Notes under the pieces: model-generated
Seen by the model: only the letters and a program-made list of their open reading frames with translations
The model's database searches: none
What the model was told of the DNA's origin: nothing
Virus record (IMG/VR): IMGVR_UViG_3300032233_002382
Span: 224,001-288,000 of that record
Source of the DNA: a virus
Lineage: Duplodnaviria > Caudoviricetes
Length of the DNA stretch: 64,000 nt
Reading direction: 5' to 3' (one strand)
Shown here: positions 30,289 to 60,987 of the stretch, piece after piece
Position numbering within the stretch: position 1 is the stretch's first letter
Layout: every line of letters begins with the position of its first letter
Program-made: the position numbers and the translations under genes

Positions 30289-30915
30289 ATGAACATTTTT
30301 GTGACCCATCACAACCCGGAAATCGCAGCAAAGCACCTGTGTGACAAACACGTTCCCAAAATGATCTTAGAAAGTGCGCAGATGCTATCTAATGCGTTTC
30401 ACGTCCTCGGACTCCCGCACCTGGCCCCATACAGACAGCTAATGCTGAAGCATCCTTGTTGCAAATGGGTACTTGAATCGAGAGGCAACTTCGAATGGTT
30501 GCTTAGGCACGCAAAACAAATTGCCGAGGAATTTGAACAGAGATTCGGGAAGAAGCACAAGTGTGAAGATGTAATTCTAAGTATGGAACGGAATTACATG
30601 AACCTCAGCTGGCCCAAGAAATCACGGACCAAATTCGTTCAGTGCATGCCAAGGATTTATCGCAATCGCGATGTCATCGTTGCGTACCGTTCATATATTA
30701 AGCACGCCAAGATGTTCGCTAAATGGAAAAAGGGGCGTAAGAAACCATCATGGTTCCTGAAGCATTACATCGAATTTAACCATGAAGAAATCGGTAATTA
30801 TATGACCGAATCGATTCCGCTACCTGATAGTGTTCCGCAACATCATATTGATTTCAGTGCTACAATCGCTTGGGCCAAGTGGTCAGTCGAGCAGGAGAAT
30901 GCAAATCTAATGTAG
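30289..30915 (+). CDS. Pyrimidine-dimer DNA glycosylase-like protein (T4 endonuclease V-related)
   Basis: MNIF...P..AA..LCDKHVPKMILESAQML N-terminus, HPC..W, AYRSY motifs. Confidence 0.75.
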   Translation: MNIFVTHHNPEIAAKHLCDKHVPKMILESAQMLSNAFHVLGLPHLAPYRQLMLKHPCCKWVLESRGNFEWLLRHAKQIAEEFEQRFGKKHKCEDVILSMERNYMNLSWPKKSRTKFVQCMPRIYRNRDVIVAYRSYIKHAKMFAKWKKGRKKPSWFLKHYIEFNHEEIGNYMTESIPLPDSVPQHHIDFSATIAWAKWSVEQENANLM

Positions 30916-31994
30916 CCCCTACCGGCGGGACCAAAGGCACTTCCTGGGCTGCTACCAACTCCCGCCTTGTCTATCATATAGTCCGTAAAAGCCACGTCAT
31001 TGGCTTCAGACTTCAGCTTTGTCCAAAGGAAGAAGGAACCTGAGGGAGTGAATGTTGTAAAATGTGGAGAATGAAGCAAGGCGTCTAATAACAAGTTACG
31101 TCGATTTTCATACTCCTTAGCCATTTCCGTCTGATGACTATTCCCGATCGAAAGAGCCGTCACAGCACCATATTGAGCGACACTGTTCACCCCGTTTGTA
31201 CTACACCTGAGCAATTTCTTAATACGATCAAGAACTGGCTCGTTATTCGATACGACATAACCAATCCTTAGACCGCTCATTGCATAGCTCTTAGAGGAGC
31301 TAAATAAAGAGATAGTTCGATTATATGCACCAGGTAGAGAAGCCACGCTTACATGTTTTAATCCGTCGAAAATCACATGTTCGTAAGCTTCATCAGACAC
31401 AATGATCAAGTCATACTTTTCTGCTAGATTAACGAATTCCTTTAAAACTGACTCAGAAAGCACGACTCCAGTTGGATTATGTGGAGTATTTAGGAAAATA
31501 GCTTTGGTATTGGGCGTAATATAACGCTCGACCATGTCCGCTGTATATGGATTGGGCTTGCTTAGGTCCATGGGACATCTAACAGCATAGCCACCAGCTA
31601 GTCTAATATTTTCTGCAATTTCGGTCCACATCGGATCCGGAATAATCACTTCATCATTGGTTTCGAGAATCGAAGCAAAGGTTAAGAAAAGTGCATGCAT
31701 TCCGCCACTAGTGACCACCACATGGTTTGGGTCAGATACCGGTATATGATTTGATCGGCGGCATTTTTCGACAATCGCACGACGCAGTTCGACGATTCCA
31801 GCTGACGCCGTGTAATGTGTATAGTCTTTATCTAAAGCATCGCGCATAGCCTGCTTAACTTCCGGATGGACTGCGAAGTTCGGATCTCCAGACTCCAGTC
31901 GGTATACCTTACGGCCTTGAGACGCCAAACCGAGCAAGCGGTCTCTGACGGTTACAATCGCACCGAAGCTAATCTGGTCTAATTGAGAAATCAT
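30843..31994 (-). CDS. PLP-dependent aminotransferase class I/II (aspartate aminotransferase-like)
   Basis: NTPHNPTG, SDEAYE and SSSKSYAMSGLRIG (PLP lysine) motifs. Confidence 0.9.
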   Translation of the reverse strand: MISQLDQISFGAIVTVRDRLLGLASQGRKVYRLESGDPNFAVHPEVKQAMRDALDKDYTHYTASAGIVELRRAIVEKCRRSNHIPVSDPNHVVVTSGGMHALFLTFASILETNDEVIIPDPMWTEIAENIRLAGGYAVRCPMDLSKPNPYTADMVERYITPNTKAIFLNTPHNPTGVVLSESVLKEFVNLAEKYDLIIVSDEAYEHVIFDGLKHVSVASLPGAYNRTISLFSSSKSYAMSGLRIGYVVSNNEPVLDRIKKLLRCSTNGVNSVAQYGAVTALSIGNSHQTEMAKEYENRRNLLLDALLHSPHFTTFTPSGSFFLWTKLKSEANDVAFTDYMIDKAGVGSSPGSAFGPAGRGYIRFAFSCSTDHLAQAIVALKSI

Positions 31995-31999
31995 GAGAC

Positions 32000-32005
32000 A
32001 CTTTA
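32000..32005 (-). promoter_or_regulatory. Putative -10 box (TAAAGT), leaderless
   Basis: ctgTAAAGT-N5-ATG(31994). Confidence 0.5.
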
Positions 32006-32009
32006 CAGA

Positions 32010-33257
32010 TCAAACTAGAACATGCTTGTTGTTACTCTCTTCAGATGAATCACGGTTGCGCCAATATGGGGGTTGGTACCTCCATCGTCGGAAGCTACGA
32101 CCTTCACCGTAGGCCTGGCGCATCCAAAAACCCGACACAAGCGTGCGAACTCGACGGACATTTATACTTTCGCTCGAGTTTTCTTCCGGGCTCCAAAGGG
32201 TTATGGAACGCCCAAGTCTAATTCGATTTTGAGGTATCAACTTCTTAAATCGATCTTTAAGGTCATCTTTCTTTCTTCCCTTAGGCAACTTCGAAATTCG
32301 ATTCCATAAAGCCCTAGCTTCGTCATTGGCCATGAAGTGCTCGACCTCAACATCCGGCCAGGTGGAATACATAACAACATTCATCGCCCAATTAAAAAGG
32401 CCTTTCCATTCAGTTCGAAAAATATCACGAGCTTTCTGGTCGATGATGAGAGTGCTATCATCGACCACCCTTTGCTCATTCGAAAGAATGTCTGAAATCG
32501 GCGTGTTCTCAGGTAGCTCTATACTAAAGTGAAAAAGAGCATCGTCGAAGGCATTAGTACCATCATGTGCTGTTCCAACAAACAAAAATCTCCACGTTCT
32601 GACAGGCTTTGAAGGATCCTCTCCTACAGGGTCTTCCGTAAGATAAAATCCCTCAAGTTGATGCCAGCCCGTTTCTTCATTATATAGCCGAAGATTATTC
32701 GACTCAGACTTAGGGATCATCACATAGATACTGGCATAAGGCATGCGCAAATCATCGGAATTTATTCCACGCAACTCAGTATGCCGTAATCGTTCAGCCA
32801 AACCCGGCGAGACTTCGTACACTTTCTTTCCCGCGTGCTCATGAATCAGATAACACCAATTCTGAATCATTCCAGTCAGCGCTGAAGCATAGAACGCTTT
32901 TTCATCAAGATTGGGATTGTATGACTTGTAAGCAGAAAGTACCATAACATTAAACTGCTGCATCAAATCAGAATTGGCAGATAAAGAAAAACTATATGGA
33001 GTCGAAGCCGACTCCATCGACTTCGAAAGAATCTCAATAGTCAGAGCAGCCAGCTTTTGAGTGTAAGGATTAGAGTAAAATCGGTCATCCACCGCCTTCG
33101 AACGAATCGAACTACCCGAACCAGAAATAATGCTCTGAGATTTCAAGTTATGTAGATAATTCGCATAGCAAAGCAAGCCTAGTTTCTCGAAATCCTGCTT
33201 AGCTTCTGTACGCTTGCTATTAAAGAATTTGTAAGCACGTTCCCAGTGGGTTAGCAT
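32010..33257 (-). CDS. Hypothetical phage protein with basic/aromatic C-terminal motif
   Basis: 415 aa; C-terminal VSGFWMRQAYGEGRSFRRWRYQPPYW. Confidence 0.6.
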   Translation of the reverse strand: MLTHWERAYKFFNSKRTEAKQDFEKLGLLCYANYLHNLKSQSIISGSGSSIRSKAVDDRFYSNPYTQKLAALTIEILSKSMESASTPYSFSLSANSDLMQQFNVMVLSAYKSYNPNLDEKAFYASALTGMIQNWCYLIHEHAGKKVYEVSPGLAERLRHTELRGINSDDLRMPYASIYVMIPKSESNNLRLYNEETGWHQLEGFYLTEDPVGEDPSKPVRTWRFLFVGTAHDGTNAFDDALFHFSIELPENTPISDILSNEQRVVDDSTLIIDQKARDIFRTEWKGLFNWAMNVVMYSTWPDVEVEHFMANDEARALWNRISKLPKGRKKDDLKDRFKKLIPQNRIRLGRSITLWSPEENSSESINVRRVRTLVSGFWMRQAYGEGRSFRRWRYQPPYWRNRDSSEESNNKHVLV

Positions 33258-33262
33258 AGATT

Positions 33263-33268
33263 AATTTA
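33263..33268 (-). promoter_or_regulatory. Putative -10 box (TAAATT), leaderless
   Basis: gtgTAAATT-N5-ATG(33257). Confidence 0.5.
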
Positions 33269-33299
33269 CACTAAACAAGAGTCCGCAATTCAAGACGCA

Positions 33300-33815
33300 C
33301 ATACGCGTGGGCCTCGACGGATATCTCCGTCGAGGCCCACGTTGGAAGGAAGCTTGATTTCGAACTTGATTCCGTTTAGAGAATCCGTCGCACCAGTCTT
33401 ACCTACCTGCTCCACGGTCCTTATCGCAGATTACGCTGCGACCGAATCGCGTGCACCCATTCTAGTTTAACATCTCTCGACGCTAAACCAAAACCGGGAC
33501 CAAGCCGATCTAGTAACCATCGCTGGTTACCGACCGAAATGGCATGTCGCGCCACGACAGGTATCGAACCACCTTGTTTAAGGGTTTGGCTCGAGACGCC
33601 ATAAGAATCGCGACATTGCCGACAGCCAAGAGAACGACTCTCATCGTTCAAATGCGTTTCCGGCTCCGCAGTTGCCTACACTAGACCGCTCTAGTAAACG
33701 ACAACAAAGGAACGACAGTCACTAGACTCTTCCGAGTATTTCGAGACCCCTTCTTTCAAGGCATCTCTAATCGACTGGCGCATAATAGCGCGCCGATAAA
33801 AATTCTAAAAATAGT
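33300..33815 (-). ncRNA. Candidate large structured ncRNA of unknown class
   Basis: ~575-nt gap with no credible CDS; closing helix 33773-33780/33391-33398; GNRA-capped hairpins on the minus strand; T-loop-like GGTTCGATACC; 16-bp terminal hairpin 33306-33341; gtgTAATTT box at 33820-33825. Confidence 0.55.
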
Positions 33816-33833
33816 AAGTAAATTACACGTCTT

Positions 33834-34499
33834 ATGTATCGTGTAGGCATGAGTGTAGATAAGATAAGGATAGCCAACCGGATTGCTAAAGGGAAAACAT
33901 CAGAATTGGTTGGTCAGGACCCAGACGTAAATCCGGACCTTAAAAATCCAGAGTCAGTTTCTGGACATAACGATCTAATAGATATCCCCAACGTACGTCA
34001 ATATAATGATTTTACGTGCGGATCTGCATGCTTGCTGGCGATACTGGCTTATTATGGGAAATATGACGGTAGAGAAGACGACCTCGCAAGCGAATTACGA
34101 ACAAATCCGATAAACGGAACAAATGCCGATGACATAGTTAAAATCGCAAGAAAGTTCGGCCTAAACGCAGAGCGTAGAGAAAACGCGGACCTTAAAATAA
34201 TCGAATCATCACTTAGACGAAAAACGCCGATTATAGTGAACTTTCAAGCCTGGAGCGATTCTGGATCAGACTACAGGCACAGCAACGAGGATGGTCACTA
34301 CGCCATAGTAACAGGCATGGACGACGAAAACCTGTATTTTCGAGATCCATCCATGAACGGAAAGATCGGCCGATTATCAAAAGCAGATTTTATGCAAAGA
34401 TGGCATGACGAAGACGCACAATCTGACGTGGAACGGATGTGCATACTATTTCACGATAATATGATCCCTAGAATCGAAGAGATAGAGTATATAGGATAA
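33834..34499 (+). CDS. C39-family cysteine peptidase with N-terminal RIANRIA tag
   Basis: RQ...TCGSACL (catalytic Cys), GHYAIV (His), DPS (Asp); start could be ATG 33849. Confidence 0.85.
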   Translation: MYRVGMSVDKIRIANRIAKGKTSELVGQDPDVNPDLKNPESVSGHNDLIDIPNVRQYNDFTCGSACLLAILAYYGKYDGREDDLASELRTNPINGTNADDIVKIARKFGLNAERRENADLKIIESSLRRKTPIIVNFQAWSDSGSDYRHSNEDGHYAIVTGMDDENLYFRDPSMNGKIGRLSKADFMQRWHDEDAQSDVERMCILFHDNMIPRIEEIEYIG

Positions 34500-35030
34500 T
34501 TAAGATCTCGAGACATGTTTTGAAACCCAGTCGTTCATTGCTATAGAACCCGCCACCGCCGCGTTCAAACTGCGTACGGATCCATACTGAGGTATACAAA
34601 CGCATCGATCCACTAAAGATAAAGTTTTTTCAGTGATACCTACCCCTTCCTCCCCTAAAATGAAAAGAGGAGGTCGATTATATGCAGTCTCATAAATCGA
34701 CTGAGCGCCTGGAACCGTGTTCTCAAGAGCGACAAACTCATACTGAGACTTTAAGCATTCCAATGATTCGTAATCCGGTAGATGGTGAACATAACTGTAA
34801 TTGAAAGTGCCGACTGCACCACGTTTATCATACTTCCGATTACCAATATAATAGACCGCTCTCGCATTAAAGGCATTGGCCGATCTAATTACTGTTCCGA
34901 AGTTAAAATCACCAACAAAGTTTTCCATCAAAACTGCGAACGGAAAAGCTTTGTTCGCTAAATCATCTCGAATAAGCTCGGTTGTCCACGCCTTATAACG
35001 ATTAATCACATTCCTATTTTCTAGATCCAA
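34500..35030 (-). CDS. SpoU/TrmH-family RNA 2'-O-methyltransferase
   Basis: NFGTVIRSA, LGEEGVGI and IPQYGSVRSLNAAVA motifs; start reassigned to TTG 35030 (SD GAGGA). Confidence 0.85.
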   Translation of the reverse strand: MDLENRNVINRYKAWTTELIRDDLANKAFPFAVLMENFVGDFNFGTVIRSANAFNARAVYYIGNRKYDKRGAVGTFNYSYVHHLPDYESLECLKSQYEFVALENTVPGAQSIYETAYNRPPLFILGEEGVGITEKTLSLVDRCVCIPQYGSVRSLNAAVAGSIAMNDWVSKHVSRS

Positions 35031-35031
35031 T

Positions 35032-35247
35032 TTATTCCTCGTGAATTTTAATAGATACTGCTTGATCACACGTCAATGACGGATAAGCTCTTCTAGCATA
35101 ACCGTTCCATGAGGGAATTTCCAATATAGTTAACATATTGTGATCGGGTCTGACAGATGAGTCGACTTTGCAACCACAATTTAAGCATTTATAACGGTAT
35201 AATCCAGCAATACCGGTAGGACCCTTGAAATCCCAGTCATGGCTCAC
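35032..35247 (-). CDS. Zn-finger-like micro-protein, array member (MSHDW...CLNCG...TCDQ...IHEE)
   Basis: Shares HxW/CxxC/TC/H motif with neighbours. Confidence 0.7.
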   Translation of the reverse strand: MSHDWDFKGPTGIAGLYRYKCLNCGCKVDSSVRPDHNMLTILEIPSWNGYARRAYPSLTCDQAVSIKIHEE

Positions 35248-35519
35248 GAGTTATGAACCTTATAAGATACACATTCTTCAACAGTATGCATTGATCTAGA
35301 TTGATCATTCTCGAATTCCATAAAACACTCTGAACACATCGGGTTTATCTTGAATGCACTTCTAATCCCGGCATAGTCGATGGGATTCTTAATAGGAGAA
35401 ATCATCCTTTGAAAAAGTTCGTTAGTTTCGTCGGTCGAGAGGCCGTCACGCGATACGCGCTTCACTTGATTATCTAAGAGAGCTTTGAGAGACGCCATCT
35501 TCTTTTCCCTATCGATCAT
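35244..35519 (-). CDS. Divergent array member (CSEC...HTVEEC...VHNS)
   Basis: 91 aa; retains CxxC and C-terminal VHxx*. Confidence 0.65.
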   Translation of the reverse strand: MIDREKKMASLKALLDNQVKRVSRDGLSTDETNELFQRMISPIKNPIDYAGIRSAFKINPMCSECFMEFENDQSRSMHTVEECVSYKVHNS

Positions 35520-35727
35520 GGACCACTTCCGCTAAGAATTCTTCGCACTTTGGGATAGCTCGATACTCCATCGAACCGCTATTAAAACACGACATTATTC
35601 GACCGACAACAAACCAGTCATAATTCGGACTGGTCCAATAACCGGCCGACGTAAGATAACCACACAACTTGCATTTCACTATGACGTTTCCATGAATCTC
35701 ATGACTTAAAATCCAGTCATGCTCCAT
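35509..35727 (-). CDS. Zn-finger-like micro-protein, array member (MEHDW...CKLCG...KCEE...VHDR)
   Basis: Start reassigned to ATG 35727 by motif alignment. Confidence 0.7.
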   Translation of the reverse strand: MEHDWILSHEIHGNVIVKCKLCGYLTSAGYWTSPNYDWFVVGRIMSCFNSGSMEYRAIPKCEEFLAEVVHDR

Positions 35728-35911
35728 GGATTGTCCCCATGAGTATTTCTTCACAGGTTAGATAAGAAGAATTCTTTAAAATAGGATCCACAACTAAGAG
35801 CCAACCATCCTTAGATGGGTTATATGAACCCACAAAAATATAACCACACATGTCACATTTAAACGTTTTGAGACCACCTGATTCCTTGAGTAAAACCCAT
35901 TCATGAAGCAT
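35717..35911 (-). CDS. Zn-finger-like micro-protein, array member (MLHEW...CDMCG...TCEE...IHGA)
   Basis: Motif shared with neighbours. Confidence 0.7.
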   Translation of the reverse strand: MLHEWVLLKESGGLKTFKCDMCGYIFVGSYNPSKDGWLLVVDPILKNSSYLTCEEILMGTIHGA

Positions 35912-36095
35912 AAATATTCCAGATTATTATTTCTTCGCAGGTCATATACTTTAAATCCTGAATCATATGGCTTCCGGATAATACTTTCTGGGCAGGAAAC
36001 GGCATATTCACATCTCTAAACAAAGAACCGCACAAAAGGCATTCGAATTCTTTGTAGTACACACCCGGCGTCCTACATTTCCATTTATGAGGCAT
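35901..36095 (-). CDS. Zn-finger-like micro-protein, array member (MPHKW...CLLCG...TCEE...IYAS)
   Basis: Motif shared with neighbours. Confidence 0.7.
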   Translation of the reverse strand: MPHKWKCRTPGVYYKEFECLLCGSLFRDVNMPFPAQKVLSGSHMIQDLKYMTCEEIIIWNIYAS

Positions 36096-36264
36096 GAATA
36101 TAATTCACCATCACATCATGATAGGTCCTAACGTCCACTAATTCATTATCACGTTCAACCCAATGTGGGTTGGGCTTCTGATTAGGATCAGAAAGCCTAC
36201 ACCAACTATTACAATTTAAGCATTTCCAAATATTCGAGTAAATTAACTGCCAATCATGGGCCAT
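36085..36264 (-). CDS. Zn-finger-like micro-protein, first array member (missing from ORF track)
   Basis: Own translation: MAHDWQLIYSNIWKCLNCNSWCRLSDPNQKPNPHWVERDNELVDVRTYHDVMVNYIHAS* (59 aa). Confidence 0.7.
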   Translation of the reverse strand: MAHDWQLIYSNIWKCLNCNSWCRLSDPNQKPNPHWVERDNELVDVRTYHDVMVNYIHAS

Positions 36265-36269
36265 ACCAT

Positions 36270-36275
36270 AACTTA
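36270..36275 (-). promoter_or_regulatory. Putative -10 box (TAAGTT), leaderless; overlaps agmatinase stop
   Basis: gtgTAAGTT-N5-ATG(36264). Confidence 0.4.
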
Positions 36276-37268
36276 CACCAAACTAGCACGCGGTCCAGCC
36301 CCAGACCAACCACAAAGTTTATGTAACATACGAGCTGCGATGATCGGATCATTTCCATCAGGTGAAGATTCATTTATATCGAATCCTACGATTTTTCGAC
36401 CCGCATTTACAACTGCCTTTAGAATCGCATTTACCTGCCACCAATTTAGACCACCTGGAACGGGTGTTCCAGTGTTCGGAACCATCGAAATGTCGAACAC
36501 ATCCATGTCAAAACAAACATAAACATTGGGTGAGAGAGTCGTTGCTATACGTTCCGCAACTATGTCGAATGATTCGTATTGAGAGTATTCCCATAAATCT
36601 TTAGCAAAAAACGGCGTTATGCGACCTCTCGAATTCATGATCGATAGATACTCGAATTCGGAAAGGTCTCGAACGCCGACCTGTGTAATCGGACATTTAG
36701 TCATTTGCACGACATTGCTCATGACAGCAGCATGCGAAAAATGACATCCGTTATACCTAGTTCGAAGATCGGCATGAGCATCAAAGTGAAGAACGCTCAA
36801 GTCTTTAAAACGCTCAAAATGAGACACGATCGAACCAAGCGAAACCGAATTATCGCCACCCAACACTATAGGCACTTTTCCCTTCGACAGCCAATAACGA
36901 GAGCGATCCCTAATAGCCGAATAGACGGTGTTACAAACCCGATTAAGCTCGTCCAAAGCTCGCGTGTCATTATTCAGACTTCTGCGATATAAATCTCGAG
37001 CTATTTCATTTGCCTCGACCGCCTCAATAACCGGATCATCGACAAATATATTCCCAACAACATTGTCACTGAATTCCAGATCAAACGTGTCGACTTGATG
37101 AGTCGCCTCAATTACTGCATCCGGCGCAAAAGCAGACCCGAGTCTATAACTTGAAGTCCCGTCAAAAGGCACAGGCACAATTACGAACTTTGATTTCTCG
37201 ATCGTGGATAACGATTCAAAGATAGGCTTAGAATTCACGATGGTAGATAAACGGTGAACTAAGTTCAT
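36273..37268 (-). CDS. speB: Agmatinase / ureohydrolase (arginase family)
   Basis: LGGDNS, HFDAHADLR, CFDMDVFD and TGTPVPGGL Mn-binding motifs. Confidence 0.8.
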   Translation of the reverse strand: MNLVHRLSTIVNSKPIFESLSTIEKSKFVIVPVPFDGTSSYRLGSAFAPDAVIEATHQVDTFDLEFSDNVVGNIFVDDPVIEAVEANEIARDLYRRSLNNDTRALDELNRVCNTVYSAIRDRSRYWLSKGKVPIVLGGDNSVSLGSIVSHFERFKDLSVLHFDAHADLRTRYNGCHFSHAAVMSNVVQMTKCPITQVGVRDLSEFEYLSIMNSRGRITPFFAKDLWEYSQYESFDIVAERIATTLSPNVYVCFDMDVFDISMVPNTGTPVPGGLNWWQVNAILKAVVNAGRKIVGFDINESSPDGNDPIIAARMLHKLCGWSGAGPRASLV

Positions 37269-37306
37269 GGACCGCCCTTAAGCATGAACTGTAATATTAC
37301 AATTCG

Positions 37307-38089
37307 CTAAAATCTAAACGCCTTCTTGAACGCGTTACCTACTTTTTTACCAGTATCTACAACTGCGTTACCGGCCTTCTTACCAGTGTCTACAATCGCA
37401 TTACCAGCTTTTTGTGCCGTGCTGACAACTGTAGACTCCGCTTTCTTCTCAGTAGCTACCACTGCACTACCGGCACTAGTTAAATCCTTGGCTGCTTGCT
37501 TAGTGTCTACAGTTACAGATACGTCGACCTTAGCTCCGACTAGTGCTGCCACATCTCCGCTAACGCCGACAGTGGCTTTACCGTCCTTGAAGGTAGCTTC
37601 GCCACCACCCCCAATACCTACTTGGTCGCCGACAGACACGCCAGCACCAGCCGTAGCTGAAGCCCCTCTCAGCTTCGCAGTGGCGTCAGCATCTACTCCA
37701 ACAGCAGTACCAGAGGAGACGCCACCGGAGGCAGCCACACCATGATCTCCAGCAGAAATGGAGGCGTCAACGGTAGTTCCGGTTACAGCATAAGCATCAC
37801 CTGAAGCTGATCCGCCAACGCCGTGATAATTTGTGGTCGCATCTACCGTCGCATGTGCCTCGGTGGTGTCAGAATAGTGCAGGCCAGCATTCACATTATT
37901 TCCATCTAAACCGGCCGAAACGCCAGCTTCAGTTCCAGTCTTAGCCGATACGCCTGCCGAAATCGACGCATTATCATTGCCGGTGCTAACCCCGGCGGAG
38001 GCTTCGATCGTGTTATTAATGGAAGCTGAAGCTGAATTCTTATCGGTAGTCGCGGTAGCTGACTGATTTGCACTTATGTTGGTGGACAT
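37307..38089 (-). CDS. Ala/Gly/Ser/Val-rich beta-repeat protein with amphipathic KKAGNAxVDTG tail repeats
   Basis: Alternating small/hydrophobic pattern (AGVS, AGLD, GVSG); C-terminal 11-aa repeats. Confidence 0.55.
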   Translation of the reverse strand: MSTNISANQSATATTDKNSASASINNTIEASAGVSTGNDNASISAGVSAKTGTEAGVSAGLDGNNVNAGLHYSDTTEAHATVDATTNYHGVGGSASGDAYAVTGTTVDASISAGDHGVAASGGVSSGTAVGVDADATAKLRGASATAGAGVSVGDQVGIGGGGEATFKDGKATVGVSGDVAALVGAKVDVSVTVDTKQAAKDLTSAGSAVVATEKKAESTVVSTAQKAGNAIVDTGKKAGNAVVDTGKKVGNAFKKAFRF

Positions 38090-55898: not shown

Positions 55899-57010
55899 TA
55901 GTCTACATCCCACAACCAAGCCGTATTTGGCTTTGTCGCTTTTACTGGTTTCATGGGATTATCCGGCTCACTGTGCTTCATCATCATGTCTATCTCTTCA
56001 GATGATAAGCCTGGTGTATAAACCGGCATAAGTTTGTCGTTAGACGCCCCAGGAAGCCAGCTATAATAATCACTGGCAGTCTTCAGGCTGGTCGAATCAC
56101 CTACCGTGGGCCTATCGTAACCACCAACACCATCTGAAGTTACGTCCTCGTAAAGGTAGTCTTCAGTGATGAACCCATCTAAATTAGGATCGTCGCTAGG
56201 AAGCGCATCTGGACCATTGAAGAACCCATAGGGAGACTCACCCGGACCGACGTGAGTAATACGTGGACCAGGAAGGTTCTCGACTGGCACAGAAGAATTA
56301 CCGCCAGCTAAACGATCGCTAGCCAGTCGAGCTCCTTGGGAAGATAGATACTTAGAGATAGCAGCGTCGTAGATGGATTCGGAAGTTTGTCGTTTAGAAG
56401 CCTGCTGGGTGAATCCTCCAGCAGAGGCGGAGGATTCATTTCCGGAACCAGACCCCTCCGGCTGACCAAAATCAGCAGGAGTGGGGTTTAAGGTCTCCGG
56501 AGTTAATTCCATAAATTCTTGCTCATCCGGTTCAGCAGTTTGGTAAGCCTGCTCCACGAATCCTTCAGGGTTTGTCTTAACTGCCTGAGCATCTTGAACC
56601 AGAGTCTTTGTCTCGGGCGCTTCTTCTAGGTTCCAATGATCGGCACCGACCTCATCATATAAGGTGTCGGTGAATGAGGAGATGATCTCAGCAGCCTGAC
56701 CGAGCGCACCTCGCATATCCTTAACGGTCTGGATGTAGCCCCGGCCCCCTAGTAGTCCATCAGGACTAAAAGAAGAAGAAGGCATTTTTGAAAGAAGTCG
56801 AAGCGCTGAAGAAGCATAGCTATGTGAGCGCTGAGCAGCCCATAAAATTTTCGCAAGGTTTTTAAGGCTATCTCGAGACCATTTGAACCCCTCGACGCGT
56901 ATATCACGTCGTACCGGACCTTGGTCACGGATGAACTCGATCTTACCGGCGGTTCTTATGGTGCCGGAAGTCGCGATCCTATGAGCGATGTCTTTGTGGA
57001 AAAAGCTCAT
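55898..57010 (-). CDS. Hypothetical protein with N-terminal IAHRIA tag
   Basis: 370 aa; SD GAGGA. Confidence 0.6.
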   Translation of the reverse strand: MSFFHKDIAHRIATSGTIRTAGKIEFIRDQGPVRRDIRVEGFKWSRDSLKNLAKILWAAQRSHSYASSALRLLSKMPSSSFSPDGLLGGRGYIQTVKDMRGALGQAAEIISSFTDTLYDEVGADHWNLEEAPETKTLVQDAQAVKTNPEGFVEQAYQTAEPDEQEFMELTPETLNPTPADFGQPEGSGSGNESSASAGGFTQQASKRQTSESIYDAAISKYLSSQGARLASDRLAGGNSSVPVENLPGPRITHVGPGESPYGFFNGPDALPSDDPNLDGFITEDYLYEDVTSDGVGGYDRPTVGDSTSLKTASDYYSWLPGASNDKLMPVYTPGLSSEEIDMMMKHSEPDNPMKPVKATKPNTAWLWDVD

Positions 57011-57011
57011 A

Positions 57012-57269
57012 TTATCCTCGAATGGGCGAGTCGTCCGAGACCAATCGAACTATCACAGTATTACCTTCTTCATCCGTGGACAATTGCCAGAAATCCTGCT
57101 GCGAGATGCGAACAAGTTTATCTTCTGCTATACGCATGAAGCCTGACAAATCGGATAAACTAGCGACCCGAATACGTGTCGCGGTGCTAGCTACCCGGCT
57201 TTTTGAAGATATCTGAAAGCCGTCATCGATTGAAGAAGACGTAAATCTTAGATCTTCTATTTTTATCAT
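57012..57269 (-). CDS. Small hypothetical protein
   Basis: 85 aa; RVAS repeats. Confidence 0.55.
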   Translation of the reverse strand: MIKIEDLRFTSSSIDDGFQISSKSRVASTATRIRVASLSDLSGFMRIAEDKLVRISQQDFWQLSTDEEGNTVIVRLVSDDSPIRG

Positions 57270-57303
57270 ATACTATCTCCCATCATAATGATCGATGAAC
57301 GAT

Positions 57304-58203
57304 CTAAACAACTGTGAGGTTAACAACTACTACTTGAGGACCATTCGAAGAATTACGGGAATTAATAACTAAGGTCGTAGAATAATTCGCCGGTACCCAA
57401 GGTATGCCTAAACTGCCAACGGTGACAGTGACCTGCTGAGACTGACCGGATGATAATGGCCCGCCCGCTGATGGACTAAAGGTGCACCACGGAGCATTTT
57501 CTGCGGCTTTAGTGATAACATAATTTAACAAGGAACCGATAGGACCCACATTTGTGATCGTAAATGTCTGAGGAAGAGTAGCAGACTGGGTCGCTAAGGT
57601 ATAAGTGAACGACAGATACTGAACGTTTAAAGAAGTCACAGGTCTCGGGAGGACATTTACAGAAAAACTTACCGAAACGGGAGGAGCCGAAGAATTACTT
57701 TGAAGATTCAATAATGCGGAGTATGGGGATGAATCACTTAGAAGATCTTGATTAATAATTCGATAGCTAAGACCACCAGATTGATTTTTACCGATTCCCG
57801 AAACCACCGAAGGTACAGGCACTAACCAAGGAACGTTTGGGGTCGCAGTTACACAGAGCATACTACCGAAAGCGCCGGAGTTTACGAACGTGATAGGACC
57901 GCCTTGGAAATTCGCATCACCTTCACTAACGGTTACCGAAACCGACGAAGAGCTAGTTAAGCTTAATGCTGGGTCTAACTGCGATTTGAATGATTGTAGG
58001 CTCTCATAAATAGCATCAACCACATCCCCTGGTATCGGGTAGTCTACATCGACCAAGCGACCGAAGGGCGAATTTATTTCGGAGACATAAAAATACTGAC
58101 CTACTGACCGTATATTATTAGCCGACACCTTCCAAGACCACTTTCCGGCCTCAGAAGATATCTGAAAATAATAACCGCCACCAGCTACATTTGGTGTTAT
58201 CAT
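57304..58203 (-). CDS. Protein with two BACON/Ig-like domains
   Basis: ITFVNSG...PWL..PS...; FTITNVG...PW....PS.GG.L..G motifs. Confidence 0.6.
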   Translation of the reverse strand: MITPNVAGGGYYFQISSEAGKWSWKVSANNIRSVGQYFYVSEINSPFGRLVDVDYPIPGDVVDAIYESLQSFKSQLDPALSLTSSSSVSVTVSEGDANFQGGPITFVNSGAFGSMLCVTATPNVPWLVPVPSVVSGIGKNQSGGLSYRIINQDLLSDSSPYSALLNLQSNSSAPPVSVSFSVNVLPRPVTSLNVQYLSFTYTLATQSATLPQTFTITNVGPIGSLLNYVITKAAENAPWCTFSPSAGGPLSSGQSQQVTVTVGSLGIPWVPANYSTTLVINSRNSSNGPQVVVVNLTVV

Positions 58204-58370
58204 ACTGTAGCTAGCAAAAAGAAGGCGATACAGCTAGAAACCTAAACGCGATATCAGACATTCTGTAAGCAGGTTCCAGAACAATAAACGGTTTTTTCGT
58301 CAATACTCAGAATCCAGGTTATTCTTACTTCGACCACAATAAGCGCAGTACCCCACCATAGCGCCTAATA

Positions 58371-58409
58371 TGAATGAACTCGCCTGAGTCCCCCAAGCGA
58401 GTTCATTCA
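58371..58409 (-). terminator. 13-bp hairpin downstream of 58438 gene
   Basis: TGAATGAACTCGC-13nt-GCGAGTTCATTCA followed by TATT on minus strand. Confidence 0.55.
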
Positions 58410-58437
58410 CATTGAAATGCACTTTAAATGCAAAGTA

Positions 58438-59142
58438 TTACATCATTGAAATCGAGCGGAGTGCTTCTACAACGGCTTGTTCGGCGGTTAAATCACCACC
58501 CTCAGCGTCATTCGGGTCGGTTAGCGGAAGTGACTGATAATAATAGTTGCTATCGTCGCCACCTGCCCCGCGCCACACTGCTACCTCTCCTAATATTTCT
58601 ATGGCGTTTCTAGGACTCGCTTTAAGATGCCTGATCATATTGTTTACAAGTGCTTTACCCTTGCGACCAGTACCGTCACCAACGTGCTCATCATTCGTGA
58701 GTATGACATCGAACCCAGATCCATCTGTTTCAAGGGTCGTGTCTTCAGAAACGCTGGAAGCATTTACACAATCAACGTAGTCTTTGGATGAATATATGGC
58801 ATTAAGCATAGGTTCTTCTACAGTAAACATATCGAAATCCAAGTCCTCCCTAAGGTCATCTAAATTAAAACCGCTAACGTGCTCTGATTCCATATCATGA
58901 CCGGCTATTTCTAAGGAAATCTTCCGAACAAATGGCTGACCACGAAACGTTCCAGTAACATGGAAATCTGGATACGCGTCAGAACCCCCAACTCTCTGAA
59001 CAGCAGTAATCACCACATCTGAGGCAAGCGCAGCAACCATTCGACGCAGATCAGAAAGCACCAGATCGCGCCTTGGAGTTTTGGAGGATTCCAAGGCGGC
59101 TGCAATGCGCTTCAGTCCTAATGCTAATTCTTTAGGTGACAT
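58438..59142 (-). CDS. Hypothetical protein sharing N-terminal module with 38511
   Basis: MSPKELALGLKRIAAALESSKTPRRDLVLSDLRRM. Confidence 0.6.
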   Translation of the reverse strand: MSPKELALGLKRIAAALESSKTPRRDLVLSDLRRMVAALASDVVITAVQRVGGSDAYPDFHVTGTFRGQPFVRKISLEIAGHDMESEHVSGFNLDDLREDLDFDMFTVEEPMLNAIYSSKDYVDCVNASSVSEDTTLETDGSGFDVILTNDEHVGDGTGRKGKALVNNMIRHLKASPRNAIEILGEVAVWRGAGGDDSNYYYQSLPLTDPNDAEGGDLTAEQAVVEALRSISMM

Positions 59143-59186
59143 GTAGGCTCCTTATATGAACTTACTATATCAGAAGTTTAAGCACA

Positions 59187-60008
59187 TTATTCCATCGTCA
59201 AAATCTGCGCGTCGCCGCGATCTCTAAACTGCGGAAGTGAGACTTCGTGGAGGATGTTGAAGTGTTTGTCACTAATAGCGAAGAACACGGTATAATATTT
59301 TCCATATCTTGAGTTATTTACTGTCACTCTCAAAGCCTCGTCTGCAGACTCGAGTTCTTTCTTAGCAATTTCGAGTTCTTCTGCTGACGATTTTACATCG
59401 TCATTAGCTATACCATGCTTAATAAGCATGGCTACACGCGTGTGTTTTTCCCTTATCTCTTCCTTAATAAGTTCTTTTATCTTATTCAAAGCGCGAAAGA
59501 ATCGATGTCTAACCCGACCCTGGGTCAAACCCATTTGTTTTGCTATTTCTGACTGGCAGGTAGTTTCGTACATTCTCCAAAGAATTTCTCGATCCTGATC
59601 TGAGAACTTCGGACCTAACTCGACATCAAAATCGCGCTTCTCTAATTCCGGAATCGTTCTGAGAAACTGGATGCGTTTAATTCCTCGATGAAGACGATAA
59701 GAAACGGCCGCTTGAGTGATTCTAAAAAGCTTTGCGATTTGCTCTTGCTTCATACGGTCTTTATAATATAGCTTTATAAGATCAGACTCACGGGCTGGAA
59801 TTCGCGCTAAAAACTTTTCTATCGAATTATAATCTAGTGCCGCAGTGCCACTAACAATAGTATCGGACAAATCTTCTTCGCTATCTGGAGCGAACGACTT
59901 CTCGATAAAATCGTCAATATTATCTCCATAGAGACTATTGCCCAATTGATACCGGTTGCTGAATCGACCAGAAATCGACGACGGGTCTTGAATAAGAATA
60001 TGTGACAT
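59187..60008 (-). CDS. Transcription regulator with two sigma-70 region-4-like HTH units
   Basis: LYYKDRMKQEQIAKLFRITQAAVSYRLHRG and MYETTCQSEIAKQMGLTQGRVRHRFFRA. Confidence 0.7.
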   Translation of the reverse strand: MSHILIQDPSSISGRFSNRYQLGNSLYGDNIDDFIEKSFAPDSEEDLSDTIVSGTAALDYNSIEKFLARIPARESDLIKLYYKDRMKQEQIAKLFRITQAAVSYRLHRGIKRIQFLRTIPELEKRDFDVELGPKFSDQDREILWRMYETTCQSEIAKQMGLTQGRVRHRFFRALNKIKELIKEEIREKHTRVAMLIKHGIANDDVKSSAEELEIAKKELESADEALRVTVNNSRYGKYYTVFFAISDKHFNILHEVSLPQFRDRGDAQILTME

Positions 60009-60084
60009 TGATCTCCTTAAGAAACCATGAAGGGTGATTTAAATTTAGTCTAGTCTAGGAGATCTACCGAACTATACAAAACGG

Positions 60085-60987
60085 CTAAATATCTTCGAAT
60101 ATAGAACTGTTAATGCTCAAGATTTCTTGATCCTGACCAGAATATTTTACCTGCTTCTGACCCTTTGCGCAATACGAAGCCAAGCTCGGTAAAAGCTCGA
60201 ACCCTACTATTTCATAATTTAGAGTCAACTGATCCCTTGAAGACGTAAGACTTTGTTTCTCTTTATCAGTAAGCCAGTCAGGTAACTGGTCGAGCATGGC
60301 TTGCGGAGATTCAAAAGCAGCAAGTTTCGAAGCAGTTGATTTCCTTAATCGATATACCCCTTTAATATTATCCGACGAGTCGCCACAAAGAGTTTTAAAC
60401 ATGCGTACTTCTAATGGATGGATCCGGGGGTGCTTGCCCTTATCGAGCCTACCCCATATATCCATCGACACTTCAGCGTCGACAAAATTAGAAGGATAAC
60501 TTGGCTTAAAAATGATTATTCTCGGATCAGAAAGCAATGAAAAGAAATCTTTATCTTCGCTAATGATAATACGAACCGTATTATCATTAATCGCACAAAA
60601 TGAAGCGATTAAGTCATCAGACTCATGATGCTTACTATGATATATATCGAACCCGGTGTCTAAAAGAGACTTCATTAGACTATCTAAAAAATCAGTGGAA
60701 TCATTAAATACCAAATTTCCAGATTCTCTTCCAGCCTTGTAAGACGGATATAAAGAAATGCGATGACTAGAGATCCCATCGAAAAACACGCTTACAGTCG
60801 AATAATCTCTTATTTTTGAAAGATAAGAGCGAACAAGAGATAAGAATCTATCATTAACTAGTGAGATAGACCTGCTTTCATCATGGGGGCTAAAGTCGTG
60901 CTTTACGGAATGAAAGGCCTTATGCAGAATATTATTCCCATCTATAAGCACATGTCTAACTGTCTCGAGACCGCCGATTTTTCTCAT
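60085..60987 (-). CDS. 5'-3' exonuclease / flap endonuclease (PolA N-terminal family)
   Basis: LIDGNN, ESDDLI, SEDKDF and GDSSDNIKGV motifs. Confidence 0.9.
   Translation of the reverse strand: MRKIGGLETVRHVLIDGNNILHKAFHSVKHDFSPHDESRSISLVNDRFLSLVRSYLSKIRDYSTVSVFFDGISSHRISLYPSYKAGRESGNLVFNDSTDFLDSLMKSLLDTGFDIYHSKHHESDDLIASFCAINDNTVRIIISEDKDFFSLLSDPRIIIFKPSYPSNFVDAEVSMDIWGRLDKGKHPRIHPLEVRMFKTLCGDSSDNIKGVYRLRKSTASKLAAFESPQAMLDQLPDWLTDKEKQSLTSSRDQLTLNYEIVGFELLPSLASYCAKGQKQVKYSGQDQEILSINSSIFEDI

Follow-up and report, generated by a model that had tools for sequence, protein, structure and literature searches.

A jumbo-phage family of very small, predicted zinc-binding proteins whose genes are chained by an 11-nucleotide dual-coding junction

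How can very small phage genes be strung together so that the last codons of one also begin the next, and what might such a string of genes produce? The locus that raises this question lies in IMG/VR virus record IMGVR_UViG_3300032233_002382, which has 307,777 base pairs (bp) and is estimated to be 72% complete. Bases 224001–288000 of the record were analysed; this 64-kilobase (kb) stretch is called the window, and positions refer to it unless genome coordinates are specified. The window also encodes a large terminase, a portal, a prohead protease and tail genes, and the source of the array is identified from its sequence as a jumbo phage. The array itself runs from 36264 to 35032 on the minus strand, within a long co-directional gene run. 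An initial annotation of the window had described six tandem micro-genes at this place, and each of its coordinates and motif counts was confirmed: an M-x-H-x-W start with a CxxC in five of the six genes, a (T/K)C(E/D) in four, and an H-x-x-stop ending in five. It had also remarked that one gene (36085–36264) is missed by the open reading frame (ORF) track, which is true, but merely because its 59 amino acids (aa) fall below the default 60-aa cut. The genes are listed from the upstream end.

36085–36264, minus strand: G1, 59 aa; family member with MAHDW and CLNC, ending IHAS; matches the family profile
35901–36095, minus strand: G2, 64 aa; canonical member with MPHKW, CLLC and TCEE, ending IYAS; the member modelled with AlphaFold2
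35717–35911, minus strand: G3, 64 aa; canonical member with MLHEW, CDMC and TCEE, ending IHGA
35509–35727, minus strand: G4, 72 aa; canonical member with MEHDW, CKLC and KCEE, ending VHDR
35244–35519, minus strand: G5, 91 aa; separate conserved protein whose family membership is not demonstrable
35032–35247, minus strand: G6, 71 aa, GTG start; canonical member with (M)SHDW, CLNC and TCDQ, ending IHEE

The protein family and its predicted fold

By sequence comparison, G1–G4 and G6 are members of an undescribed family of 60–80-residue, single-domain jumbo-phage proteins. Profile searches detected about 24 members in the 308-kb genome, G5 not counted. The array had been read as an expansion, and a true paralogue expansion it is, but not a local burst: the six-gene array (array 1) is a small outpost of this family of about 24 copies, whose paralogues are old. 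The other copies lie outside array 1, as follows, with more at genome 42–45 kb.

Genome (C1) 56341–60555, minus strand: array 2, 14 family members, interrupted by two non-family ORFs; outside the window and ~200 kb from array 1
Genome position 122360, plus strand: singleton family member

The member at genome 43804–43565 (minus strand) ends in GTTCATGATTCATGA, in which the embedded ATG reads just M-I-H-E-P-stop; this end seems to be what remains of a downstream paralogue that was lost.

The initial annotation had proposed a conserved scaffold around a variable centre, and the alignments agree. The 22 aligned members of this genome all have W5, C19, C22 and P32, and nearly all have H3 and C53. 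With metagenomic homologues included (82 sequences), H3, W5, C19 and C22 show no variation and P32 and C53 very little, and a variable stretch lies between them. These Cys, His and Trp residues are kept although their codons vary synonymously. A profile search of 1.84 billion cluster representatives returned 426 matches at E<=1e-3, the homologue clusters standing at 50% identity; most are full-length proteins of 58–80 aa with the same motifs. The family was found in contigs of 46–48% guanine-plus-cytosine (GC) content and of 60–65% GC. In-frame two-domain fusions occur naturally in the metagenomic homologues P0003, P0107, P0102 and P0016 and at L101:938–1411, the tail of the first domain running directly into the next HxW motif.

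The family matches no described one. Scans of the six genes and of 22–82 members against Pfam, PHROGs and NCBIfam gave merely sub-threshold zinc-knuckle noise: the best Pfam scores (RUBY_RBDX, Zn_ribbon_15 and others) were 13–16 bits against cut-offs of 26–40 bits, any single Pfam family was matched by just 2 of the 82 members, and NCBIfam gave nothing consistent. A cluster look-up of the six array proteins returned only two assemblies of this same phage.

The AlphaFold2 model of G2, made from a 22-row alignment, is confident (predicted local distance difference test score 87.5; predicted template modelling score 0.70). It comprises five short strands and then a C-terminal helix at residues 53–63. 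His3 stands just before strand 1, C19 and C22 sit at the turn between strands 2 and 3, and C53 begins the helix; confidence is lowest at residues 41–50, the most variable block of the sequence. Metal binding is suggested by the conservation pattern, and the domain would then be a very small sheet-plus-helix unit stapled by a His-Cys3 metal site with one knuckle. The candidate zinc site consists of His3 on the first strand, the Cys-x2-Cys knuckle and the third Cys capping the C-terminal helix. These ligands would tie the N-terminal end and the middle of the tiny domain to its C-terminal helix, so that the stretch between knuckle and helix would be free to vary.

Structure comparisons reached the knuckle and little else. 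Foldseek searches of the PDB, AFDB clusters and BFVD gave E-values of 0.3 or worse, with just residues 3–30 aligned to small phage zinc-ribbon proteins. No whole-domain match was obtained with VIA-align against 48,161 chains (best Z 2.7) or with an ESM Atlas shape search. The best solved-structure rows include C1 domains (Munc13, Z 2.7; GEFH1, Z 2.2); C1 domains have two interleaved His-Cys3 zinc sites, and the family offers four candidate ligands in all. Against PDB sequences, the family profile found solely the rubredoxin-type WxCxxCG...PD knuckle (best E 0.0013). A prediction of a complex of G2, G3 and two zinc ions scored 0.01, which is no verdict and was counted neither way.

Several named classes were considered and set aside. 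The two-knuckle zinc-ribbon or rubredoxin-like class does not fit, the family having one conserved CxxC; its other candidate ligands are His3 and the lone Cys with which the helix begins, and no curated profile of that class scored above threshold. The alignment with AcrVIA2 (a PDB-sequence row, E 0.024) is limited to 14 knuckle residues. The HEWD domain PF20576, a language-model look-alike (score 0.86), had no six-frame match in the whole genome at E<=10, while control genomes did match in the same search. WhiB-like iron–sulphur proteins appeared at chance level in tblastn (E 0.9, mycobacteriophages), and the family conserves three Cys, not four.

The 91-aa gene G5 had been called a variant member of the set, which was not borne out. 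Profiles built without G5 match just its last ~20 residues; for profiles A2 and A3 the matched stretch scored 0.4 and 1.8 bits, and the whole sequence 1.4 and 2.6 bits. The G5 model has two confident N-terminal helices, an unmodelled middle with CSEC, and a C-terminal helix that bears the tail shared with the family (HTVEEC..KVHNS). No G5 paralogue was found in the whole genome with phmmer or jackhmmer. Orthologues at L113:1220–1480 (51% identity) and L112:448–696 retain PLCxxC, HT(L/V)EEC and HKVHxS. G5 codons 1–4 (ATG ATC GAT AGG) are two base changes away from the family junction. On these comparisons, G5 is a separately conserved small protein whose common feature with the family is limited to the C-terminal tail: a family derivative that has been strongly remodelled, or else a small protein of unrelated origin with the same tail.

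The junction, its conservation and the shared tail

The genes of array 1 are joined by the following overlaps.

36085–36095, minus strand: 11-nucleotide (nt) dual-coding junction G1/G2, ATGCCTCATAA
35901–35911, minus strand: 11-nt dual-coding junction G2/G3, ATGCTTCATGA; TAT (Tyr), at position −3 of the upstream gene, still supplies the ATG
35717–35727, minus strand: 11-nt dual-coding junction G3/G4, ATGGAGCATGA
35509–35519, minus strand: 11-nt junction G4/G5, ATGATCGATAG; also 11 nt in contig L113, 8 nt with a GTG start in L112
35244–35247, minus strand: 4-nt junction G5/G6, GTGA; GTGA in L113, ATGA in L112

Thus, as first annotated, four consecutive overlaps measure exactly 11 nt, the upstream CAT or TAT codon together with the next G makes the ATG of the next gene, and at junctions 1–3 the T of the upstream TGA or TAA comes from the downstream His codon CAT. 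At these three junctions the upstream frame reads (H/Y)-x-(S/A)-stop, while the downstream frame, one base later, reads M-x-H-x-W. With a period of 3n−11, each gene lies in the +1 frame of its predecessor. The tail His codon of G6 is CAC, and there is no overlap downstream of G6.

The junction pattern is far from chance. For the string ATGnnnCATrAnTGG, 0.35 occurrences would be expected on the two strands of the 308-kb genome together; the minus strand alone has 11, and all 11 are starts of family genes. The usual overlaps in this genome are of 4 nt (39 cases) and 1 nt (18 cases); among 17 candidate 11-nt overlaps, the downstream gene is a family member or G5 in 10.

Homologues of the array genes are not confined to single copies without the overlap: arrays with 11-nt junctions recur in other contigs. 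L012 (ENA) and L013 (an NCBI metagenome assembly) each have ten consecutive 11-nt junctions, that is 11 genes, plus one more. Array 2 of this phage is joined by 11-nt junctions (five times), by overlaps of 17, 8 and 0 nt and by short spacers; it is syntenic with L014 and L016, and L014, L016 and L011 are its closer relatives, with the same junction types including the 17-, 8- and 0-nt variants. The 36 eleven-nt junctions of five contigs, which represent 33 distinct contexts, have the consensus RTY-C-ATG-CCT-CAT-RA-n-TGG. The GC-rich contig L101 (64% GC) carries at least six domain copies, including one in-frame two-domain fusion, and has three 11-nt overlaps (ATGACTCCTGA once and ATGGATCCTGA twice). 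In L101 the HxW motif stands at residues 9–11, so that the two genes share just the CAT-G of the upstream gene's tail, which is used as the next start.

Relatives of array 1 itself are found in two contigs. L113 has orthologues of G4 (L113:1012–1230, 51% identity, BLASTP), G5 (51%) and G6 (L113:1477–1692, 40%), joined by the same 11-nt and GTGA junctions, and also the closest relative of G3 (L113:29–226, 36%). Between this G3-like member and the G4-G5-G6 block lies a 189-aa protein (L113:248–817) that begins MDYHKIASNL. In L112 the order is [..IYAS-stop]-G4-like-G5-G6-SpoU, with junctions of 11 nt, 8 nt (GTG start) and 4 nt (ATGA); its G4 orthologue (L112:237–455) is 66% identical over the aligned core and its G6 orthologue (L112:693–908) 58%. 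Two complete relatives, G002 (436 kb) and G005 (377 kb), differ in that they have 9 and 6 dispersed copies, respectively; among the seven copies that were read through none has an 11-nt overlap, and their last residues are VMES, VMDS or VQEE.

The orthologues are under purifying selection. For array-2 orthologues compared with L014, the ratio of nonsynonymous to synonymous substitution rates (dN/dS) is 0.05–0.16. For G4, G5 and G6 compared with L112 and L113, the proportion of nonsynonymous differences (pN) is 0.25–0.52 while that of synonymous differences (pS) is saturated at about 0.8; G4–G6 are faster-evolving than the array-2 orthologues. In a tree of 74 members and 67 columns, used just for well-supported orthologue pairs, the array-2 paralogues are joined with high support to orthologues from other contigs, and their duplications are therefore old. 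Array-1 members sit on long, unresolved branches.

The arrays also turn over. Most genes of L012 and L013 are identical or nearly so, while three cassettes differ at pN 0.24–0.32 with high pS, and each contig has one extra duplicate. A member at L014:5708–5869 stops right after its third Cys (ending ..GTCE) and is missing from the otherwise near-identical L016; it looks like a decaying copy, an example of this turnover. Cassette differences, duplicates and losses of this kind indicate recombination, duplication and loss as the ways in which arrays change, rather than hypermutation in place.

When there is no overlap, His3 is retained and is then often CAC. In the overlapped junctions His3 is CAT in all 35 of the 36 that encode it (the G4/G5 junction has GAT), and the −3 residue of the upstream protein is H, Y or N, for which any codon of the form NAT serves. 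Where the tail His codon has changed from CAT to CAC, in this phage and in L014, an ATG 6 nt upstream is used instead, which gives a 17-nt overlap.

The upstream half of the junction belongs to a tail that extends beyond the family. Family members end in [VI]-[HMQ]-x-S-stop at the end of the C-terminal helix; in 134 representatives the −3 residue is H in 51, M in 43 and Q in 25 (119/134), and the last residue is S in 77. In this genome, the pattern [VIAL]-x-x-[VIL]-[HMQN]-x-[SATE]-stop ends 43 ORFs, against 3.3 expected, and ~20 of these are non-family proteins of up to 255 aa. Examples of tail-bearing ORFs are:

Genome (C1) 72334–72645, plus strand
Genome (C1) 73511–74278, plus strand
Genome (C1) 74941–75645, plus strand
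Genome (C1) 66472–67107, minus strand

Several of the non-family tail ORFs have a CAC codon and no overlap, and a few have an 11-nt overlap with an unrelated next gene. Two non-family tail proteins have homologues in G002 and G005 (27–30% identity) that end in VAMVMDS, IEGVHES, IVNVMGV or VKELMDS; loci carrying relatives of the non-family tail proteins are L108, L109, L110 and L111.

The initial annotation had held that the conserved residues also encode the coupling of the genes. The terminal codons do double as stop and start. The residues themselves, however, are not explained by the overlap, since His3 and the tail are kept where there is no overlap and non-family proteins also bear the tail. 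Both termini are constrained as protein, and the overlap therefore exploits their compatibility; the start-codon requirement then adds a nucleotide-level constraint on the junction.

More than 40 proteins of this phage, with different folds, bear the tail, among them the predicted zinc mini-proteins, G5 and proteins of 100–255 aa. We tentatively suggest, as a minority possibility, that the tail (hydrophobic-x-x-[V/I/L]-[H/M/Q]-x-S-stop) serves throughout the clade as an address or docking signal. At the same time its codons would act as a portable translational-coupling cassette, because CAT-G supplies the start of whichever gene comes next, and the arrays would be the extreme use of it. If so, the phage proteins that bear the tail would form a class directed to a single shared partner, such as a hub protein, a protease or chaperone, or a compartment or virion loader. 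That unrelated proteins have the tail in common is a hint of a common recognition system in this giant-phage clade.

Proposed mechanism and competing explanations

The explanation that we judge probable, with fair confidence, is a joint one: a zinc-binding family, arrays grown by copying of the junction, translation coupled by termination–reinitiation, and a panel of binders as the product. Where the tail His is coded by CAT and the next codon begins with G, an ATG arises inside the tail; the end of the tail, TCA-TRA, when read one base later gives CAT-RAn, the His3 of M-x-H-x-W. A gene end and the start of the next gene thus fit in the same 11 bases. The junction would have originated by fusion of such compatible termini, forming a joined repeat unit (gene length minus 11 nt) that could be copied by tandem duplication and unequal recombination. 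Afterwards the arrays would have gained, lost and swapped cassettes, with each paralogue under purifying selection.

At the level of expression, the array genes would be read from one long minus-strand transcript. No terminator and no convincing promoter were detected inside the array, and a strong terminator-like hairpin lies upstream of it (39132–39095). A ribosome terminating at the UGA or UAA of one gene, just 8 nt past the AUG of the next, may re-initiate there, so that the proteins would be made in roughly equal amounts with no ribosome-binding sites between the genes. In bacteria, genes with short overlaps show tight coupling by termination–reinitiation (PMC6728339; PMC10666635), and the array has what is expected of coupled pairs, with overlaps of 11, 11, 11, 11 and 4 nt on one strand and no terminator between. 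Pairing with the anti-Shine–Dalgarno (anti-SD) sequence before the overlapped starts of this array is weak (−3.1 to −5.5 kcal/mol; coding control −2.5). The proteins may then act as a panel of specific binders; the initial annotation had suggested anti-defence or host-binding factors made in stoichiometric amounts, which may be so. Protein targets would be more likely than nucleic acid, because the charge is mildly acidic: for 76 members, the median isoelectric point (pI) is 6.05 and the median net charge −1, and 75% lie below pI 7.

Several observations weigh against this explanation. In G1 the third conserved Cys is substituted, TYHD standing where others have TCEE. The family is dispersed and non-overlapped in the two complete relatives, so the overlap is dispensable for function. 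Reinitiation was measured on 1- and 4-nt overlaps, which are shorter than 11 nt (PMC6728339; PMC10666635), and the mean anti-SD pairing upstream of overlapped starts, −4.7 kcal/mol, leaves room for independent initiation. The junction could persist merely through two constrained protein termini, with no selection for coupling. The binder role is argued from analogy, from variability and from the mildly acidic charge, and array 1 is surrounded by late and metabolic genes and does not lie in an obvious early region.

The first rival, which we hold to be rather unlikely yet worth weighing, takes up some of these points: the 11-nt overlap would be the functionless, frozen by-product of a single fusion, pinned by two constrained termini, and the genes would be initiated independently. 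It would account for termini that are conserved without overlap, for anti-SD pairing at overlapped starts that exceeds the coding control (−4.7 versus −2.5 kcal/mol), and for junctions that have shifted to 17, 8, 4 or 0 nt with the genes retained. It fits less well with an overlap that arose or persisted in lineages of 46–48% GC and of 64% GC with different downstream N-termini, or with a GC-rich genome that codes His as CAT exactly where ATG is supplied. Moreover, altered junctions stay within 0–17 nt and seldom open into spacers with their own ribosome-binding site.

A second rival concerns function and not the junction. The proteins might be sequence-specific nucleic-acid binders, either transcription factors or structural DNA- or RNA-binding proteins. 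The same role was proposed for the sole comparable expansion that has been described, in phage G (PMC7824862), the in-frame two-domain fusions recall tandem zinc-finger readers, and the weak profile matches land on zinc-finger and ribbon knuckles. Yet the members are mostly neutral to acidic, by the pI values given above, the family alignment has no conserved basic patch, and there is no homology to a DNA-binding family at threshold; we regard this role as unlikely.

Less probable still is a hetero-oligomer, in which neighbouring paralogues are subunits of one complex and the overlaps fix stoichiometry and allow co-translational assembly. The G4-G5-G6 order and junctions kept in L113 would suit such a complex, as would the individual conservation of array-2 paralogues across phages. 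A fixed complex would not be expected to swap cassettes, however, nor to vary in copy number and membership between close relatives (L012/L013, L014/L016), and the complete relatives have dispersed single copies.

The +1 frame of each gene relative to its predecessor, together with the natural in-frame fusions elsewhere, also brings to mind a polyprotein made by programmed +1 frameshifting at each junction, giving a multi-domain zinc protein. This is highly improbable: neither a slippery heptamer nor a prfB-like shift site is present at the junction, each unit has an ATG of its own, which is restored when lost, and gene callers on other assemblies annotate the array units as separate genes. 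Finally, that the ORFs are a non-coding tandem repeat or chance ORFs, as their very small size and lack of database names might suggest, is effectively refuted by the selection and conservation data (orthologue dN/dS and G4–G6 pN well below pS, Cys, His and Trp invariant over synonymously variable codons), by the confident fold model and by hundreds of same-length homologues.

Gene neighbourhood and comparison with known systems

Array 1 lies between two genes on the same strand.

36273–37268, minus strand: arginase/agmatinase-family protein, upstream neighbour; Pfam PF00491, E 3e-53
34500–35030, minus strand: SpoU-type RNA methyltransferase, downstream neighbour; Pfam PF00588, E 1e-24

The arginase gene is co-directional with G1, and its stop lies 8 nt ahead of the G1 start. 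It was not found in five related phage records, and a search for related loci with this gene returned no relatives. The longest SpoU ORF (34500–35069, minus strand) has a GTG start at 35069 and a 38-nt overlap with G6. The true start is most likely the TTG at 35030, 1 nt past the G6 stop, because the L112 homologue starts 1 nt after its G6 stop. SpoU was found in one of the five related phage records, and the order of G6 followed by SpoU is kept in L112. From 30843 to 37268, auxiliary metabolic-type genes stand amid the structural region: a class I/II aminotransferase, the SpoU methyltransferase and the arginase/agmatinase-family protein, with a C39-like peptidase on the opposite strand. This stretch looks like a variable island, since the arginase gene is missing from the five related records. 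A blastn search of 34000–38000 against cultured phage records gave no match.

The family is widespread, with 426 clusters in phage-like contigs of 46–65% GC, and has no name in any library. Its junction is a clean natural case of 11 bases in two frames, both conserved as protein, along arrays of up to 11 genes. It is a good test case for the reach of termination–reinitiation and for the origin of overlapping genes by fusion of compatible termini. The small, loop-variable domain, stapled in the proposed fold, could be of interest to research on counter-defence or host-takeover binders or on minimal scaffolds.

The closest described parallel is the zinc-ribbon expansion of Bacillus jumbo phage G, with about 35 copies, for which a role as specific transcription factors or DNA-binding proteins was guessed (Iyer et al. 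2021, Viruses 13:63, PMC7824862). Both are large jumbo-phage expansions of paralogues of a very small Cys-containing, metal-binding domain (predicted here). The family described here, however, has one knuckle (His, Cys-x2-Cys and Cys), whereas the phage G ribbon has two knuckles and four Cys; its members have a conserved C-terminal helix and tail, and they are chained by the dual-coding 11-nt junction, of which there is no report for phage G. When one member was searched by tblastn in 50,697 phage records, phage G was not among the matches at E<=1. The central knuckle and the Pro/Asp motif that follows it align with the first rubredoxin knuckle (WxCxxCG...P.PD), while the second CxxC is absent and the other candidate ligands are the N-terminal His and the Cys at the helix N-cap.

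The junctions resemble the gene pairs in which termination–reinitiation has been studied (Huber et al. 2019, PMC6728339; 2023, PMC10666635) in that the genes are co-directional and spacer-free, the stop lies within a few bases of the start, and the ribosome-binding sequences are weak. They differ in having an overlap of 11 nt in place of the usual 4 or 1 nt, in its repetition at up to ten successive junctions, and in that conserved residues of both proteins also constrain each base of the overlap; coupling is here a reading of the sequence. The arrays recall the gene 'accordions' of large viruses, as tandem arrays that vary in copy number between close relatives and contain duplicates, truncated copies and swapped cassettes, but here most of the paralogues are old, and purifying selection conserves them individually; they do not come from a recent burst. 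In conclusion, an expansion of small metal-binding paralogues in a jumbo phage and genes coupled by overlap are already known in kind; what is new is the family with its predicted ligand set, the tail it shares with other proteins, and the 11-nt dual-coding junction repeated in series.

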